From positions 152,485 to 216,484 of the IMG/VR virus record IMGVR_UViG_3300028886_000031: DNA of 64,000 nucleotides. One strand, written 5' to 3'. Of the stretch, positions 3,001 through 44,462 are shown piece after piece. Origin of the DNA: a virus. Its lineage: Duplodnaviria > Heunggongvirae > Uroviricota > Caudoviricetes. The first letter of the stretch is position 1. Each line of letters starts with the position of its first letter. A program made the position numbers and the translations under genes. The notes below the pieces were generated by a model. That model made no database searches, was not told the DNA's origin, and saw only the letters and a program-made list of their open reading frames with translations.

Positions 3001-5712
3001 CATATTGTTATCAGGATCGGAGTCTATATTTGTATCGTTCTGAACCTCTGATATATTTTGGAATATAGCATCTAAATATGAAGGATCAACTTTGTCTACG
3101 ACAACACATTTTGCCAGTTTTGAATCTGGTTTGAACATGGAATCACTATAATAGAATTTCTTTTCTACATAGTAAGGAAGACCCTTTTCATCTTTTTGTT
3201 TAACCGTAAATGTATGTATTTTAATAACTGTACTTGGGAACAAATCAGATGGAGAAGATACAAATGACATCTTTCCATTTTCACGTTTAACGTCTACATT
3301 GTATTCATTCTTGAGAGTATCAAACTTTTCACTATTGTAATCTAATTCTATTTTCTCATAGCCTAAGGCATTCCAATTATCTTCGAAAGTTACAGAATCA
3401 GAATTTAGATTAAAATATGATCCTATTTTGTTTTGACCATCATTCTTAGAAACATGGATATATAGATTTCCATTTTTATAAACTGGGATTCCATAATCAT
3501 TTTCCGTAAAGATCTCTGTATCTAAATTTATGTTGTTATCTATTACAAGATTACGGCTTTTAATTCTGAGCCATTTTGTTCCTTCGTAGTTTAAAAAGAA
3601 ATATGTTGTATTCTTATTTTTCCCATAACTAATAGCCCAATTCCACTTCTTATTCTGTGGATATCTATTTCCAATGTTTACATAATTAAGTTTTTCACCA
3701 TCGTGTGTTATAAAATCTTTATAGTTAAACGTAATGTCTGTGATATATTTTCTAAGCGCAGTTTCTTTAATAATATCTTTATCTTCTCTAAAGAGTGATG
3801 TTGGATATTTTAGAAAGCTATTCATAAATGTAGCATATCTAAAATCCCTATCTGTATTTCTGAAAGGAAGATTTTTTAGATAACTATTATAATTTTCTAT
3901 AAGTTCAGATTCCGGAATAGAACTTTGGACACCGTATGTAGAGCTTTTAAATATATTGTATATTGGATTATTCTGAAAATGTAAATCGTGCATTAAAAAG
4001 TCTGAATAATAATAGATCATGTCTAGATCTGTACTATTCGTAAAACTTCCGAGATAAAATGGCTTTTGATAAAAAATTGTTGGAATGTTCTCTGGTGTAT
4101 GATAATGGACAATTCTAATTCTTTCTCTAGCATCTTCCACAGGAATTTTAGCTTCATCATATCTAGCATCAATAATTCTCTGCATAGATTGACTTGAAAC
4201 TTTACAATTTTCCTCTATTGTAGTCCAATTTGTATATACGTTTCCTTCATCTAAGCAAACTTGTATATCATAATATCCATAGTTATGTGGCTCATTCCAG
4301 AATATCTCTATATATTTTCCATTGGCATGTAATTGATAATTACTAATTTTTATAATAGATCTAATTCCATCCAGACCATTTTCAGAATCTACTTTTTCGT
4401 GTTTCTTTGTAAGCCACCAATACTCTAATTCGTCATAACTACAATATCCAACTGGTACGGCAGTTAAGACATAATGTTCCAAAGTCTTTTGATAAATCTG
4501 TTTCTTGCTTGGATCTTCTATTTTATTAATAAACGTGTATATTCTATATGCTAACTCTAAGAACTTATTTGGACCGACGATATCACTTGTATCTAGTCCA
4601 GTAAACCCAAATCTAGTAGTATAATGTCTCAGATCATTAAATCTAAGATAATCTGCATACATTACGAGCATGTAAAGAAAGCCTTGCCAAACTGCCAGAA
4701 AGCTCGTATTTAGATTGGAATTTCCAATTATAACATCTTTCTTTGGTTTTACACCAGATAGAAAATCTACTATCTGCTGTTTAGCAAGTCTGTTAATCAT
4801 TCTTAATGTAGTTGTATGATCATTATTGCTAAACTTAATTTTGACATTAAAGTATGGCGTTAGAGAAGGAAGATGCATGTATGTATAGTTCTTATCCTTC
4901 TTTGTTAAACCCTGATTCCAGTTTAACTTAACAATTTCCCATTTCTTATAGAACCAATGACACTCTTTAATTTCATCTAGTTTAGAGTTAAATTTGCCCC
5001 ATTCCCAATATTCTTCATCAATACCTTCATTCTGATCGATGTATTGACCAGATGTAGAAGTTTCTACAAGTTCATTTGGTCTTTTTATTGGAATCCATTT
5101 AATTTCTACGTTTTCTCGTCCATCTCTGGTAGGATATACCCAAGCTTCTGTAATATAACAATCTTCAAGACCAATAATGTTTAATGCCTTTACAATAGAA
5201 TCTGGTGAACCCTTTATTTTATAAAGATCACACATATTCAATAAAAACGTTTGTCTTCTATTAAGTGATGCTACTGTTCTACTATTAATAAAGTCTATTC
5301 CAAATCCTCTAATTGCTTTATCTACCTCATCACTGGATAGACTATACGCGTTTGTACATTGTGCTGTTGTATCTTGAAAAGTCTTAATTGTTCCAGCCCA
5401 ATCAAGAATAATACTCTTGAACATATAGCAGTCTATAGTATTAAAGGAATATGATCCAGGAAAACCAGCTCCATTAAAATATTTACTTATATCTAATCTA
5501 GAGTTAATTGCCTGGAGGATTTCATCCTTATGCTTTGGGAATATCAATCCTGGCTGACCATCTGGATAATCATAATTGAGGGATTCAAAGTATTTATCTA
5601 TTGTATTGAATCTAAGAGAAACTTTTTGGCTGAGTTGTTTGCAATATCTAATGCTGTTTAACTGGTAGAAGTTAAAAATTCTCAGGAAATTGTCTACTGA
5701 AGGAAATATCAT
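1..5712 (-). CDS. Very large (>=1904 aa, 3'-truncated by window edge) virion structural protein, baseplate wedge-like
   Basis: ATG at 5712 after AAAGGA; hand translation MIFPSVDNFLRIFNFYQ...FLLNMCDLYKIKGSPDSIVKALNIIG resembles the LYKxKGT motif of baseplate wedge proteins (T4 gp7 / P2 gpI type). The track reports no stop-terminated ORF in this frame, and the antisense shadow ORFs at 64, 1597 and 2368 share its codon register, so the frame appears open to base 1. Confidence 0.8.
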   Translation of the reverse strand, partial: MIFPSVDNFLRIFNFYQLNSIRYCKQLSQKVSLRFNTIDKYFESLNYDYPDGQPGLIFPKHKDEILQAINSRLDISKYFNGAGFPGSYSFNTIDCYMFKSIILDWAGTIKTFQDTTAQCTNAYSLSSDEVDKAIRGFGIDFINSRTVASLNRRQTFLLNMCDLYKIKGSPDSIVKALNIIGLEDCYITEAWVYPTRDGRENVEIKWIPIKRPNELVETSTSGQYIDQNEGIDEEYWEWGKFNSKLDEIKECHWFYKKWEIVKLNWNQGLTKKDKNYTYMHLPSLTPYFNVKIKFSNNDHTTTLRMINRLAKQQIVDFLSGVKPKKDVIIGNSNLNTSFLAVWQGFLYMLVMYADYLRFNDLRHYTTRFGFTGLDTSDIVGPNKFLELAYRIYTFINKIEDPSKKQIYQKTLEHYVLTAVPVGYCSYDELEYWWLTKKHEKVDSENGLDGIRSIIKISNYQLHANGKYIEIFWNEPHNYGYYDIQVCLDEGNVYTNWTTIEENCKVSSQSMQRIIDARYDEAKIPVEDARERIRIVHYHTPENIPTIFYQKPFYLGSFTNSTDLDMIYYYSDFLMHDLHFQNNPIYNIFKSSTYGVQSSIPESELIENYNSYLKNLPFRNTDRDFRYATFMNSFLKYPTSLFREDKDIIKETALRKYITDITFNYKDFITHDGEKLNYVNIGNRYPQNKKWNWAISYGKNKNTTYFFLNYEGTKWLRIKSRNLVIDNNINLDTEIFTENDYGIPVYKNGNLYIHVSKNDGQNKIGSYFNLNSDSVTFEDNWNALGYEKIELDYNSEKFDTLKNEYNVDVKRENGKMSFVSSPSDLFPSTVIKIHTFTVKQKDEKGLPYYVEKKFYYSDSMFKPDSKLAKCVVVDKVDPSYLDAIFQNISEVQNDTNIDSDPDNNMDNIRIPVYNDPFGSNIQYSYQISDLFKYMYKNGYILDINSGFIYKNFNYYLDEQTNYIYIKCINLDEDEAQERIKYRWIRTKCSRIWDINEDRKSIYYQLDADGNYVTDYLGKRNPIFDCGYCDQDFTYRRVYDSERYLADPYVNELDYSSVTDNDVHILHVGSGRYYCEVQRDYINEKNEDVGKKYIPESTIKTYHYDKETDSVHEVYTQFKEPLIMNVNYGLDQDLLDYINAKLTSYEDSMEQYTNLILELAEALQEYLKNNGYKCVLDVYNTHIFSSRLVRNIINFYKPKRDRMLRLVSQLEIDFNDYTLNDIDDINYNRIRPNNVDGKENLNISDENGLRNRSRIKQQINEYVPFNDLIYLKDYKNDNEVVNYREVYPYVNSLTPQIEVYDKLDNIGDYYIMYDDKKIYASYYCSGFDQNVDGFYFDISKTGNKYTNNRYYFYKTTYTFLSNYDVDGTPFDKRHYITLTRWFVYEYAFRNDKCYHFNYVSEDDISGNPYLKSNGEPLKYCKLENIEDYDTFILYLNKAEYKYGIFQHYTKDNSGYIKTNKRNITPTFYIGDFENPKYNGYYYALEDKKRFGYPIYFNKNGKMISFYDLSFLPDTYLDLAIKEYHKNDANMFWIITDYCQIPDISEATYIAFCESASDTSIFKTKNGISTGETKTFYKLNPKLKSDVSDLLFVCGVCGYSLDIIAEYPHLLGEDYQTYKGKKDSNGNYTIPLDKYSKLFNRRISQNTLPEMYTPISYINFYYGNGLYDFYNTTTIEVTDIDRAAINLNKRYYGHDFNGYQYGALYCNEFTNIKFTNNISNKDLHIILRIRNVLEDSTKLHGEPVDELNKYIRQQDSKWHLYHLKYDSKQNMTYLYRDGFYEAINNVDVHNIVIQNQCCYICEFAVFDQNLPDWYLPILNDYGVFAYRKEQKKKYNAVKDSYEPLFNTDMPRSCYGKMVTGLPENIQGDRFSSTFYDNSNGKYIESHYDGADRYNTFKWDAAGYYKVY

Positions 5713-35503: not shown

Positions 35504-35570
35504 TGTCTTAACTCCTTTCTGTATATGTTTATATATTTAGATATAACATAACATTTAAAATAGATGTACG

Positions 35571-35663
35571 ATTTCTATTAGAAATTTACAATATGAGATT
35601 AAATAGAGTTATTTACTTTAATTTCTATTAGAAATTTACAATATGAGATTAAATAGAGTTATT
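35571..35663. repeat. 43-bp direct repeat, two copies, period 50
   Basis: ATTTCTATTAGAAATTTACAATATGAGATTAAATAGAGTTATT at 35571 and 35621. Confidence 0.9.
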
Positions 35664-35861
35664 AGAGGATCAGATTTAAAGAAAGAGCTCATTATATAAT
35701 AAAATTTTCAATTATATAGGAGAATTTCTACACATATCCGATTAATGCAACTTATTCCAGCTCTCCATTTAAGGATCGACCTCCTAATATTATAAAAAAA
35801 TCTATATATAGGAGTTCTTTAAATAAATTAAAATACAATTTATAATATAAGGTATAATGTA

Positions 35862-38346: not shown

Positions 38347-39000
38347 CTATTTGTTTCCAAGATATTTTTCTAATTCTGCTGAAGTAAAAAATCTAGATGG
38401 AGGTGGTGTTGGAGCTAATCCAAAATGATATTGTGTTGGATGTTGTGCTAAAGGTCCAAACTGTGGTTTTGATGTTAAATACTTTTCTAGTTCCTCTGCT
38501 GTGAAAGGTTTTGATGGAGGTGGTGTTGGAGCTAGTCCAGATGGAGGTGTTATTGGAGTTGGTGTTGATTGAGGAGGTGTTTCTGCAGGTTTTTGTTCAG
38601 TTGTTGGATCACTGTTTCCAAAGTAATTTCCAATCATTCCACCAAGAACGGCTCCACCAGTTGTTCCTATGGCTCTAGCTCCAATCTTTAGTAATTTCTT
38701 TTTTCTTATTTTGTCATTTAGAATATTTATAGCTTGAAGTTTCCAATCTGGACTTGATTCCAATTGTTTAAGGACATTAGCTATGTTTGGATCTATTTGC
38801 TGTACTTCTTGTAATGTTGATCTAAAGGAGTCATTTGCCAGGATTATATCTCTAATCTTATTAAGCTTATCTAAACTGGCGTTAATAAAATATTTATCTA
38901 TTAGTTTAGATGTAAAGAATCCAGCTGTACCGCCAGCTATTCCGCCAATCGAACCAGGAACGGTAATTGAGAATTCATATAAGGGATTTAAATTTCTCAT
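38347..39000 (-). CDS. Glycine-zipper family protein with NLNPLYE leader and duplicated Pro-rich tail
   Basis: Two GxxxG helices; GLAPTPPPS..FT..ELEKYL twice. Confidence 0.85.
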   Translation of the reverse strand: MRNLNPLYEFSITVPGSIGGIAGGTAGFFTSKLIDKYFINASLDKLNKIRDIILANDSFRSTLQEVQQIDPNIANVLKQLESSPDWKLQAINILNDKIRKKKLLKIGARAIGTTGGAVLGGMIGNYFGNSDPTTEQKPAETPPQSTPTPITPPSGLAPTPPPSKPFTAEELEKYLTSKPQFGPLAQHPTQYHFGLAPTPPPSRFFTSAELEKYLGNK

Positions 39001-39086: not shown

Positions 39087-39620
39087 ATGAGAAATTTAAA
39101 TCCAATTTATGAAGATGTATGGTATCCAGGAACTATCTTGGGAGGAGCCGTTGGTGGTGGAGCTGGTTTTTTAATATCTAAGTTGGTTGATAAATATTTT
39201 ATAAAGACCAATATGCAGAAACTGATGCATATTAAAGGTATACTTTTGAATACGGATTCATTTTCCGAGTTCCAAAATAAAGCTATGGATGTAGATCCCA
39301 AATTTGGTGTTGTTTTAAAACAATATGAAAAATATCCGAATTGGAAAGAAACTCTTTTAGCGCTTTTGGATAAGAAAATTAACCAGAAAAAAATGTTACA
39401 AGCTGGAGTTAAAGGTCTTGGAACAGTAGGTGGTGCTGTAGCTGGCGGTATGATAGGAAATAATTTAGAGCCAAATAAACCTCTTCCTAGTATTACAGAT
39501 AAGGATCTTCTTTGGGAGCTTCCTGATTATATGAAAAACAGACCAACTATTTTAGATGTAATGGATGATCCAAATAAGTATAGAGCGTCTATTCCATATG
39601 GTGGAATACGTTTTTATTAA
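39087..39620 (+). CDS. Glycine-zipper family protein with NLNPIYE leader
   Basis: Clear paralog of 38347-39000 (SKL.DKYFI ... GGAV.GGMIGN). Confidence 0.85.
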   Translation: MRNLNPIYEDVWYPGTILGGAVGGGAGFLISKLVDKYFIKTNMQKLMHIKGILLNTDSFSEFQNKAMDVDPKFGVVLKQYEKYPNWKETLLALLDKKINQKKMLQAGVKGLGTVGGAVAGGMIGNNLEPNKPLPSITDKDLLWELPDYMKNRPTILDVMDDPNKYRASIPYGGIRFY

Positions 39621-41129: not shown

Positions 41130-41543
41130 ATGACAAAAGTTATTCTAGAATGGAATCAAAAGCATATTCTAAAAGAAGATACAGCACAAGCAGTTATTGG
41201 AGCTGGATCTGGAGCTATAGGAATGGCATTCGGTGAATGGTTATTGCATTGGGTTAAAGAACTTAAAGCAGTTATTTATAACGCTAATACGATAGAAGAA
41301 GTTAAAGAATGGTATGATAAAAACATTGTAGATGATGATGCCATTTATTGGACACGTAAAAACTTGCTTAAAACAGATTATTTTAGTAGAGCACTTGGTA
41401 TGATGATGGAAAACCATGATCCAAACTGGAAAGAAAAACTCTTAAGAAGATGTAATAAAAGTATCTTTTTAACAAGAGCTAGTGGTGCAATTATGACAGG
41501 TCTCTTAACTGTCAAGGGTGCACTAACAAATAGTTATCAATAA
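41130..41543 (+). CDS. Divergent member of the glycine-zipper family
   Basis: GAGSGAIG helix; shared central motif (NTIEE...PNWKEKLL). Confidence 0.75.
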   Translation: MTKVILEWNQKHILKEDTAQAVIGAGSGAIGMAFGEWLLHWVKELKAVIYNANTIEEVKEWYDKNIVDDDAIYWTRKNLLKTDYFSRALGMMMENHDPNWKEKLLRRCNKSIFLTRASGAIMTGLLTVKGALTNSYQ

Positions 41544-41568
41544 GATAACTTTAAATAATTCAATGTAA

Positions 41569-41583
41569 CTATATATATTATCT
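41569..41583 (+). promoter_or_regulatory. Early-type promoter driving the pentamer array
   Basis: CTATATATATTATCT. Confidence 0.6.
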
Positions 41584-41589
41584 CTTAAT

Positions 41590-42290
41590 GGTAGGAGGAA
41601 GATTGGGATTTTTTCCATTCTTCCTCCGTAAATCCTAGTAAAAGAAACAGAGAAGATATGTGGCGAAGGGAGTTGACGAGACACGGAAGAGACGAGAGTC
41701 GATTTGATACGAATGGAAATGGAATCGACGGGAGACGAGCGGTAGCGATTCTAGTCGAGATGGATGGGAATAGAGTCGATTGGTCACGACACGAATGGAT
41801 ATGACATGGAAAAGAACAGTTAGGATAGGATACGAGAAGGAAAGGAATAGTCACGATGTGTTTTGAGACGGAGAGGAACTGATATGACTAGAATGGACGC
41901 GAATAGATAAGGATACGAAGCAAGAGGAGACGAACCGTTACGATAAGGAGAAGATTGGACCTGATTCGACGTGAGATGAAACAGAAGAGAAGAGTAGCGT
42001 AGGGATTTGACTGGAGTGGAGACGGAAAAGACTGGAGGTGTGCTGAGGTGACAAGAGACAGAGAGGATTCGGGACGTGTCGACAGGTGGAGACGCGAATA
42101 GATAGGGAATGGAAAAGAGCGGATGGGAGTCGAACAGAGGCGAGTTGAGACGGAATGGATGAGATACAACGGGATACGAATGGAAATGGATGTGAGCCGA
42201 AAGGATAGGAATTGATCCGTATCTCACTTCAAGAAAAGAATTTCCAAAAGGTTCTTTTACATCCTATTCTATAGGATGTTTTTCTTGACT
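41590..42290 (+). ncRNA. Putative guide-RNA precursor (VIPR-like) containing the pentamer array
   Basis: Promoter motif, 5' hairpin 41594-41627, array, 3' hairpins with T tract about 42227-42290; no + strand ORF; RAMP gene nearby. Confidence 0.7.
41644..42218 (+). repeat. 5-nt periodic array (G[A/T]NNN)n in 15 blocks separated by GANANR hexamers
   Basis: Hand parse: 111 units, 108 start with G, 95 with GA, 12 with GT; a 1-nt phase slip ends each block. Confidence 0.95.
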
Positions 42291-42409: not shown

Positions 42410-42724
42410 ATGACAAAAGAAGAGGTTAATGAGAATTTCGATTCTGCGGCAACAAAGCTGCTGGAGGCACTCATGAAGAGTGACCTTGAACATTATCGTG
42501 CTACCTGGACTTTTAATGATTGTGTTTATGGCGTTGAATTCTGGAAACCGGAACTCAAATTCATGAATTACAAGCACAGAACGTTTGTCTTTACCCCAGG
42601 AAAAGACTTTCCTGTGGAGATGGAATTGAAGATGACGTTTTTGATTAAGTTTCAGGAAATTTGGAAAGGGCACATGGACATTGTCAGAAAGCGTGACCAA
42701 GATTTGGATGCGTTTACTCTTTGA
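42410..42724 (+). CDS. Hypothetical protein (104 aa) between the array and the RAMP gene
   Basis: SD AAAAGGAA; own early-type motif at 42320; GC-richer codon use. Confidence 0.8.
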   Translation: MTKEEVNENFDSAATKLLEALMKSDLEHYRATWTFNDCVYGVEFWKPELKFMNYKHRTFVFTPGKDFPVEMELKMTFLIKFQEIWKGHMDIVRKRDQDLDAFTL

Positions 42725-42829: not shown

Positions 42830-42930
42830 ATTGATAGTGGTGAGATGTGTCTTACGTTATTGGTTGAAAGACCATTTTAACAAGAGACTCATTGAACCAT
42901 AAAACAACAACCGAAAGGAGAAAAAAAGAA

Positions 42931-43638
42931 ATGGGAACAAAAATCAAAGTGCGGTTCACGACCGTGCAGCCCATATTGGGCATGACGTCCGAGAATGAGG
43001 CGTTGTATGACGCCCACATCCGGATGAGGGACAAAAAACTTGGGGTGAGAGCGGCGACCCTCATTCCTACGGAAAAGAGAGAACAGGAACTTGCTGCAAT
43101 CCGTCTTGCAAGAGACGAAGTGCGGCAGGAGAACGCCGAACGTTCACGTAACTTGTTTCCTCGCTCTACCACTGATACAAACCATCCACCGATCTGGTAT
43201 GCCAGTCAGATGAAGGGTTTCTTGAAATCCTCATTCGAAGCCCTTCTTCAGACGGACAAGGCTCTGTGGCAAAAGAGCAAGGGATGCCTTTTGAATCCCT
43301 ATAACGTTAAGAAGCGTGTCGACCAACTTATTCTCGTTACGCCAGACGAGATTATCATTCACATACCTGAAGGAACAGGGATTGGATGGTGCCAGAGACC
43401 TCTATTTCGACAGGATGAACATAATTCCGAGGTCAAGAAGTCCTCGATGGCTTGTTCTGAGGAAATTGGTGCAGGAGCGTGGTTTGAGTTCGAGGTTACT
43501 GTTCTGAACTCAAAATACGTTCCTTACATCAAGGATGCGTTTGCCTATGCACAGGTTGTCGGCTTCGGAGGTTGGCGCGGGTCTGGTGATCGTGGCAAAG
43601 CTACTTTTGAGATTCTCTCTGAAGAGAATTTTGAGTAG
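42931..43638 (+). CDS. Stand-alone Cas7/RAMP-fold protein (Vipr-like), 235 aa
   Basis: SD AAAGGAG, ATG 42931; RAMP motifs IKVRFTTVQPILG (beta1), PIWYASQMKGFLKS (P.IPGSSLKG-like), CQRPL, C-terminal G-loop GFGGWRGSGDRGKATF. Confidence 0.8.
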   Translation: MGTKIKVRFTTVQPILGMTSENEALYDAHIRMRDKKLGVRAATLIPTEKREQELAAIRLARDEVRQENAERSRNLFPRSTTDTNHPPIWYASQMKGFLKSSFEALLQTDKALWQKSKGCLLNPYNVKKRVDQLILVTPDEIIIHIPEGTGIGWCQRPLFRQDEHNSEVKKSSMACSEEIGAGAWFEFEVTVLNSKYVPYIKDAFAYAQVVGFGGWRGSGDRGKATFEILSEENFE

Positions 43639-43663
43639 TTAGCAACAAACAGGCAAAAACAGG

Positions 43664-43697
43664 AAGGTCTAGTAGCGAAATGCGAACGACCTTTTTG
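43664..43697 (+). terminator. Dispersed terminator element after the RAMP gene
   Basis: AAGGTCTAGTAGCGAAATGCGAACGACCTTTTT. Confidence 0.75.
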
Positions 43698-44138
43698 TTC
43701 GAAACTTTTATTTAACATGAAAAGATTTTGAATAGTATATATCATTATAAATTATGTGTATATGTTTAGCTCTGTCTTAGAAATTATTCTGAATTGATTA
43801 AGACTGAAAGACTGTATAAAATAATAAAGTAGATGTCTGCCATAAGCATCGAATTCCTTGTAATGGGACGTCGAAATATTATTTTAACAAGATCTTAATC
43901 AATCGTATGTCTATAGAGAAGTACCCAGATTTCTCATTAGATATATTGTTAACCATCAGGATATTTTTTAAGTAGCAATACATTTAGATTTTGTTTTTCA
44001 ATCTTATAATGTAGGTATATACACATCCATCAATTACTCTGCAACCTATTGTTTACGATAACACACTCTTCCTTTCTGGTGTGTAATCTCTCCTGTTGTA
44101 CAATAGGTTGCAGAGAATTTTTTTAATAAAAATAAAAT

Positions 44139-44462
44139 ATGTATAACGATTTATTTCTGTTAGAATTTGCACAATCTGGAAGATTTGTGAGAAAATTAGA
44201 AAAGACTGGTGGAGATAGTGTTGTACAATCTATTTTAAAATGGGCTGGTCAAACTCCTAGACAAAGACATGCTAAAAGACTCCTTAAATTAAAAAACGCT
44301 TATGGATACGATGAAGATAAATTAAAGAGATTAGCATATGCAAACTGGCAACTCCATCATCCTGGAACAAAACCAACTAATGAGCAATTAATTGAAATTA
44401 TTAAAAAACTGCTAAAAGATAGAAATACAGAAATATCCCATTCTTGGACAACATTTTTCTAA
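44139..44462 (+). CDS. Basic hypothetical protein with MYNDLFLLE leader
   Basis: Leader resembles the family; AT-rich codons. Confidence 0.7.
   Translation: MYNDLFLLEFAQSGRFVRKLEKTGGDSVVQSILKWAGQTPRQRHAKRLLKLKNAYGYDEDKLKRLAYANWQLHHPGTKPTNEQLIEIIKKLLKDRNTEISHSWTTFF

Follow-up and report, generated by a model that had tools for sequence, protein, structure and literature searches.

The locus described here comes from the genome of a giant rumen phage (source habitat, bovine gut) and contains an array of five-letter units, 575 bases long. The window, meaning the whole stretch of 64,000 nucleotides that was analysed, also carries on the same strand a gene for a stand-alone RAMP protein, which begins 0.7 kb downstream of the array. 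A combination of this kind has been published as VIPR, a CRISPR-related, RNA-guided DNA silencer consisting of a lone phage RAMP protein (Vipr) and vrRNAs made of five-base units (bioRxiv 10.64898/2026.04.26.720920, 10.64898/2026.04.26.720927, 10.64898/2026.10.15.759431). A previous reading of this DNA from its letters alone (hereafter the sequence-only reading) had inferred a multiplexed array with no CRISPR-like repeat. Such a system is not without precedent, since Vipr and pentamer-repeat vrRNAs were published in 2026 (bioRxiv 10.64898/2026.04.26.720920); the finding is not a new kind of system. The features of the locus are the following.

41550..41579, + strand: promoter-like site (TTTAAA, 18 nt, TATATT) in the conserved leader, a candidate promoter from a consensus scan
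41594..41627, + strand: 5' leader hairpin (fold of 41560-41660: -28.2 kcal/mol, z=-3.6)
41627..41635, + strand: conserved leader motif CGTAAATCC, just 5' of the first hexamer, from the leader alignment
41644..42218, + strand: vrRNA-type array of 97 G-A-N-N-N pentamers and 15 hexamers, in 15 blocks of 31-46 nt (last 30 nt)
42259..42284, + strand: predicted intrinsic-terminator-like hairpin and T run, end of the array transcript
42410..42724, + strand: 104-aa ORF between array and vipr, a possible but unsupported accessory (vap) gene, no family match
42931..43638, + strand: vipr gene, stand-alone 235-aa RAMP of the Vipr family (homologues, AF2 model, Foldseek, G-loop alignment)
43683..43701, + strand: predicted terminator-like hairpin 3' of vipr

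Hairpins were found at the two ends of the array only. Between them the blocks abut directly, with no structured 3' tail on each block. The 104-aa ORF had no match in Pfam, PHROGs or NCBIfam. Rfam, searched over the whole window at gathering thresholds, returned one tRNA only, so that the array has no Rfam family. No nucleotide similarity to the locus was detected in GenBank phages, and a metagenome scan with the leader DNA motif gave no match.

In rumen RNA libraries of two studies, contigs extend over the upstream gene as far as 41654 and restart at 42840. A search of RNA runs for the array by itself listed none that contain it. As contigs cannot show transcripts or their ends, the gap between 41654 and 42840 carries no information on expression of the array. 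The vipr region (42840-43663) is matched at 99-100% identity by rumen metatranscriptome contigs of two studies, a weak hint that vipr is expressed, with DNA carry-over being possible.

Elsewhere in the window, an intergenic, iteron-like tandem repeat with a period of 27/50 nt was detected at 35570-35684 (Tandem Repeats Finder score 136). A divergent ORF pair (38347-39000 on the - strand, 39087-39620 on the + strand) gave weak glycine-zipper matches, and the small ORFs that follow 39087-39620, upstream of the array, may encode membrane proteins.

Unit and hexamer grammar of the array

The array had been divided by hand into a hexamer at 41644 and 15 blocks running from 41650 to 42218, and this division was reproduced letter for letter. 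The blocks contain 7, 7, 8, 9, 6, 6, 8, 7, 7, 8, 7, 9, 9, 7 and 6 units, and the parse stops exactly at 42218. An independent parser based on dynamic programming, which rewards nothing but 'GA' at the start of a unit and imposes a penalty on any length but 5, returned the identical 97 pentamers and 15 hexamers. Block length is 31, 36, 41 or 46 nt, i.e. 5n+1, apart from the 30 nt of the last block. The hexamers common to both parses, all on the + strand, are listed below.

41644..41649, +: GAAACA, leading hexamer, part of the conserved leader-to-array junction (also in the leader alignment)
41680..41685, +: GACACG
41716..41721, +: GAAATG
41757..41762, +: GAGATG
41803..41808, +: GACATG
41834..41839, +: GAGAAG
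41865..41870, +: GAGACG
41906..41911, +: GATAAG
41942..41947, +: GATAAG
41978..41983, +: GAAACA
42019..42024, +: GAGACG
42055..42060, +: GAGACA
42101..42106, +: GATAGG
42147..42152, +: GAGACG
42183..42188, +: GAAATG

In the 112 units taken together, positions 1-2 are fixed and positions 3-5 are free. Among the pentamers, position 1 is G in 94/97 and position 2 is A in 84, T in 12, G in 1 and C in none, while positions 3-5 vary; the start differs from GA in 13 of the 97, and 12 of these 13 are GT. All 15 hexamers begin with GA. Moreover, their fourth position is A in 15/15, against 31/97 in the pentamers (Fisher p=3.3e-7), and their sixth is always a purine (G in 12, A in 3), exactly as the sequence-only reading had stated. 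The test on position 4 is independent of the parse because the parser ignores this position. That every block is closed by a hexamer was correct for 14 closing hexamers; the last block is unclosed, and the 15th hexamer leads the array. Apart from a mild A-richness in the first unit, the constraint is confined to the hexamer, and the base before the unit G is free.

On the + strand, purines predominate in 41644-42218 (G 208, A 206, T 95, C 66). When both strands of the complete 321,650-bp genome were scanned for GA at a period of 5, the array region was the only match. The predicted structure of the array RNA is close to that of shuffled sequence (z=+0.64), as would be expected for a strand coated with protein. 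Tandem-repeat analysis and inspection of the sequence detected no 24-40-nt direct repeats with unique spacers at the array. The statement that there is no CRISPR-like repeat is therefore right for repeats of 24-40 nt, but the conserved hexamer amounts to a minimal repeat in its own right.

A compositional bias was also observed at position 5 of the inner pentamers (41650-42218), where A occurs in 3/53 and G or C in 39/53 (~74%), in a phage of 31% GC. The pooled relatives do not have this GC-rich, A-poor position.

The neighbouring Vipr protein

In published VIPR systems, Vipr holds a constant GGY, the two variable bases of the unit pair with DNA and every third target base is skipped (bioRxiv 10.64898/2026.04.26.720920, 10.64898/2026.04.26.720927). 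The published filaments have one protomer per unit and 5-6 subunits per turn, and the pocket for Y3 is said to exclude purines. The experiments reported to date concern type II, with a promoter and a structured tail for each guide, and its exemplar is Escherichia phage SUSP1.

An exhaustive phmmer search with the product of 42931-43638 found 387 relatives. With 42 relatives aligned, the AF2 model of the protein had a pLDDT of 88. The top Foldseek match of this model among AFDB clusters was A0A1F4YLN4 (E 3e-15, TM 0.70), and A0A2D6XG06, X1U2U4, A0A0F9A1L0 and A0A661D0E2 were also within the top 14 cluster matches. These are the five founding Vipr accessions named in the methods of the preprint (bioRxiv 10.64898/2026.04.26.720920). 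The best matches in the PDB were type VII Cas7 and Csm3. Pfam, PHROGs and NCBIfam gave no match for Vipr or its neighbours, and no Cas family, cas1/cas2 and Cas6 included, was found among the neighbouring genes searched. A word-index protein search with Vipr returned the self-match only, and a metagenome scan with two Vipr peptides gave no match.

The vipr gene of SUSP1 was located in KT454805.2, where it adjoins GGT-type vrRNAs. A profile of the window Vipr clade had no match in the SUSP1 genome, and in an hhalign comparison of this clade with SUSP1 Vipr the G-loop alone aligned (probability 73%). Within the G-loop, the window protein keeps two residues of SUSP1 Vipr, the W stacking on G2 and the R in contact with Y3. 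D177 of SUSP1, the aspartate that reads G1, corresponds to G in the window protein and to glutamine in most of the clade. Because the match to SUSP1 is limited to the G-loop, with W and R kept and the G1 aspartate replaced, the sequence and the predicted fold identify the window protein as a Vipr whose lineage is distant from the type II studied so far.

A search for a single residue deciding between A and C at position 2 of the unit gave a suggestive trend at most. At the F212 site, three residues before the G-loop W, a larger residue is present in 4/5 pure-GA lineages (F in the window and L001, Y in L103, M in L089); the fifth, L124, has L, and I or L occupies the site in lineages whose arrays are GC-type or mixed. 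The residue at this site is a possible determinant of purine acceptance, in a trend that is confounded by phylogeny.

Related arrays and turnover of blocks

Arrays of period-5 G were found on the vipr strand in 76 of 85 scanned sequences (the loci of 84 relatives and the window), mostly directly beside vipr. A DNA pattern written from the grammar only matched 74 viral loci, and vipr adjoins the match in at least 17 of them.

The nearest relative, L001, has a Vipr of 52% identity and four GA-type arrays; it comes, like L002, from public rumen-like assemblies. The three L001 arrays upstream of vipr have a leader of the window type, with promoter-like stretch, hairpin, YGTAAAWCC and first hexamer. 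Indeed, a TTTAAAT...CTATATATATTAT stretch precedes all three of them and also the first array of L002, and YGTAAAWCC is found in 5/5 aligned leaders. The L001 hairpins stand at the equivalent place and differ in sequence. At the 3' side, terminator architecture is the sole feature shared between array trailers, the second L001 array (1346-1690) having a two-hairpin trailer as in the window. No ORF lies between the third L001 array and vipr, and the genes flanking the window locus (41130-41543 and 44139-44462) have no counterpart beside L001 vipr.

Eight other GA-type phage loci were pooled, giving 580 pentamers and 96 hexamers. In these hexamers, position 6 is G in 91/96, position 4 is A in 72/96 and position 3 is A in 66/96; those of L001 mostly read GAAA[ATC]G. 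With the window included, the slips of GA-type arrays fall on 111 hexamers, 4 heptamers and 1 tetramer, and the blocks, mostly of 5-9 units, have a mode of 7. Units of the form G-C-N-N-N make up 18 GC-type arrays lying beside vipr relatives at 31-35% identity. Their 117 hexamers read G-C-A-A-N-G (A 89, A 101, G 109), and the block mode is again 7. The constant of the family is G at position 6 and A at positions 3-4, and not GANANR. Through the G at position 6, GGA or GGC arises where the next block begins. Slips in random sequence contexts, which would have spoken against punctuation, are not what the orthologous arrays contain: in the 8 GA-type loci and 18 GC-type arrays, the slip is almost always +1 and sits on G-(A/C)-A-A-N-G.

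GA and GC units coexist within single blocks of some relatives. Because the two types mix in this way, the A of the window unit is assigned to the Y3 position and its G to G2, with G1 free.

Long GA-pentamer arrays with runs of 11-45 units were also observed at L104 (8710-9114), L117 (4806-5682) and L141 (6058-6934). They are broken by T-rich stretches such as GTTTA-ACTTTT-TAAATG, have no vipr in the fetched segments, and may be of a tailed or solo vrRNA type. Finally, a GC-rich viral contig (L147, 6752-7997) has three short runs of GAGTG/GAATG/GAGAG/GATTG pentamers between protein-coding stretches, and no vipr gene in the segment.

The sequence-only reading had proposed comparing the arrays of related phages for gain or loss of blocks at hexamer boundaries, and this is what was found between L001 and L002. 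These loci are 97-98% identical, and their two large array differences, one block of 31 nt and one run of five blocks, consist of whole blocks bounded by hexamers. Short repeated sequences are present at the junctions of both indels. The gut phages L092, L105, L116, L134 and L146 have some blocks in common and others swapped, and adjacent paralogous blocks occur in the L001 array downstream of its vipr (3208-3790). As judged from these alignments, blocks are the units of evolution, by gain and loss. Blockwise gain and loss at hexamers matches what is expected of separate guides.

Probable guides, target searches and alternatives

The window phage resembles published VIPR carriers in encoding a small stand-alone RAMP with a neighbouring same-strand array of five-base units. 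Further likenesses are the constant G-containing positions beside hypervariable ones, the absence of CRISPR repeats, the absence of cas genes among the neighbours searched, and the conserved W-R of the G-loop. It differs from type II in several respects. In place of G-G-Y, the constant motif reads G-A, with A or T but never C as its second base and with G1 free, and the G1-reading aspartate of SUSP1 is replaced by glycine. Blocks contain 6-9 units against 9-16. Individual guides have no promoter, tail or pseudoknot, and 15 blocks with six-base separators would share one transcript; no conserved vap gene was seen among the flanking genes compared with L001.

The canonical GGY/NN consensus is not seen in the array. 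The methods of the preprint list the variant units NNNGG, YNNNG and NNNNG (10.64898/2026.04.26.720920), of which YNNNG, with A for Y, comes closest. The same methods and the legend of fig. S18 describe tail-less 'staggered' vrRNA arrays. According to these passages, the likeness to the window lies in the missing tails, in the end of one vrRNA being the start of the next, in the one-base offset and in the single fixed G per unit. However, the legend gives a 1-nt overlap, whereas the offset in the window is a 1-nt insertion (5n+1). As far as these passages go, the 5n+1 grammar of the window probably corresponds to the staggered arrays. In these passages there is no mention of a hexamer consensus, of the distribution of block sizes, of block indels or of the A-type unit. 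What is new here is the A-type unit, the clade-wide hexamer consensus, the block statistics and the block indels.

Like CRISPR arrays, which are processed by Cas6 or host RNases, the array would place many guides on one precursor, and its guide modules are gained and lost. In contrast to CRISPR arrays, the separator measures 6 nt and not the 24-40 nt of a repeat, and the guide is interleaved with constant bases. By analogy with the 3' trimming of type III crRNAs, which is measured by the Cas7 (Csm3) filament, a periodic RAMP filament could define which RNA is exposed.

We consider it very likely that the array is a guide-RNA (vrRNA) array of a phage VIPR system, and there is good reason to think that the hexamers delimit separate guides. 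On physical cleavage at the hexamer our judgement is evenly divided. The explanation as a whole, a VIPR vrRNA array with the Vipr of 42931-43638 as its user and hexamers punctuating about 15 guides, is a likely one. The sequence-only reading had the same core, namely a multiplexed guide-like array, a neighbouring RAMP and a non-random hexamer punctuation; this core is borne out to a large extent by the linkage to Vipr, the conserved hexamers and the blockwise turnover.

The mechanism that we propose starts from one transcript of about 700 nt, which would comprise the leader promoter, the 5' hairpin, the 15 blocks and the terminator. By analogy with the SUSP1 structures, Vipr protomers would coat this transcript, one per five-base unit, each gripping the constant G-A and offering the variable bases to DNA. 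With respect to the published register G1-G2-Y3-N4-N5, the window G would be G2, A would take the place of Y3 and G1 would be free. The hexamer would then be a last unit ending in A, followed by one spacer base and by a G that restores GGA/GGC. Its extra base would shift the 5-nt register by +1. This slip may serve as a stop/start mark that the filament cannot cross, so that every block has a short Vipr filament to itself. Each block (6-9 units here, 5-9 in the clade as a whole) would then act as a separate guide, with the next filament perhaps seeded at the restored GG motif. Vipr or a host RNase would probably trim the unprotected junction, and the system would silence competing elements at the level of DNA.

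If two bases are read per unit, as published, a block of 6-9 units specifies just 12-18 bases, a short stretch for the specific recognition of DNA. Moreover, A at the Y3 place would require an altered Vipr pocket. A variant of the mechanism that we hold as a tentative possibility is punctuation purely by phase. The extra base and the restored GG would end one filament and seed the next, borders being set by the register with neither a processing enzyme nor a repeat; the pocket would be rebuilt for a purine, and three bases may be read per unit.

Under the reading rules tried, none of the blocks searched had a credible DNA target. In the phage's own genome, self-matches under eight reading rules equalled those of shuffled controls. 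The guides of L001 gave no signal against the genome of the window phage, scans for exact patterns in IMG/VR and in prokaryote genomes yielded matches at chance level only, and a codon-position likelihood test on the variable dinucleotides detected no preference. Blocks 12 and 13 had no viral matches. Under the rule of two bases plus a skip, block 4 had 9, of which 4 belong to one family of fragments from AT-rich phages estimated at ~300 kb and agree at 18/18. This was the sole perfect long match found; it lies at G001:C1:17046-17071 (L169 1501-1526), inside a 307-aa ORF, and also occurs in G002-G004. We judged it a chance match: the skipped base falls at codon position 2, no other block converges on these fragments and the third bases agree at chance level. 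The 44 matches of block 4 in prokaryote genomes were likewise rejected, being scattered and with third-base agreement at chance. One 8-unit block of gut phage L116 had 21 matches, on which its other blocks do not converge.

The +1 slips could also be read as phase adjusters within one continuous VIPR scaffold or guide. They would then serve the helical geometry of a long filament, at about one slip per 1.2-1.5 turns, or an irregular long target. The single promoter and single terminator of the whole array suit such a continuous molecule, and blocks of 5-9 units are of the order of the 5-6 subunits per turn. Within one array, however, block length ranges over 5-9 units, and the hexamer is conserved in sequence and not in length alone. 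Moreover, close relatives have whole blocks inserted, deleted or exchanged with their neighbours untouched, and in the one 16/16 match examined the adjacent blocks did not match the flanking DNA. A continuous guide is therefore improbable. Block turnover raises another question, that of hexamers as mere scars or microhomologies of array building, produced by duplication or recombination between short GAAANGGA-like sequences and with no role in RNA. The repeats at both L001/L002 indel junctions could indeed reflect recombination at hexamers rather than function, and the paralogous neighbours in the L001 array fit duplication. Neutral scars, though, would have decayed and would include -1 slips as often as +1, whereas the consensus and the +1 direction persist in GA- and GC-type arrays across proteins only 31-35% identical; we regard this origin as very unlikely.

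Finally, RNAs that titrate proteins, such as CsrB or the GAG repeats bound by TRAP, typically contain short purine motifs in repeated copies. The array could thus be a sponge or decoy RNA, or else a DNA element (origin, centromere or packaging site), readings with which the absence of a target also agrees. Against both stand the tight, strand-specific linkage to the Vipr RAMP across dozens of unrelated phages, the hypervariability of three of the five positions together with block turnover, a 5-nt period exactly that of published vrRNAs, and the lack of an Rfam family; the strong strand asymmetry further argues against a site in double-stranded DNA. We give these readings hardly any credit. 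The VIPR guide array, punctuated by hexamers, is the reading that we retain.

Across a broad clade of phage Vipr proteins, arrays of both the A-type and the C-type have a six-base border that shifts the register by +1. This border rule is a simple means of calling guides in such arrays, which is needed for target prediction, and the border unit is a design idea for multiplexed VIPR guides. The adenine found where the solved structure excludes purines indicates that the protein and its constant motif can change together. The array suggests a way for a tail-less lineage to pack many guides per transcript and, if punctuation by phase alone is true, it would be the most compact multiplex guide array known.
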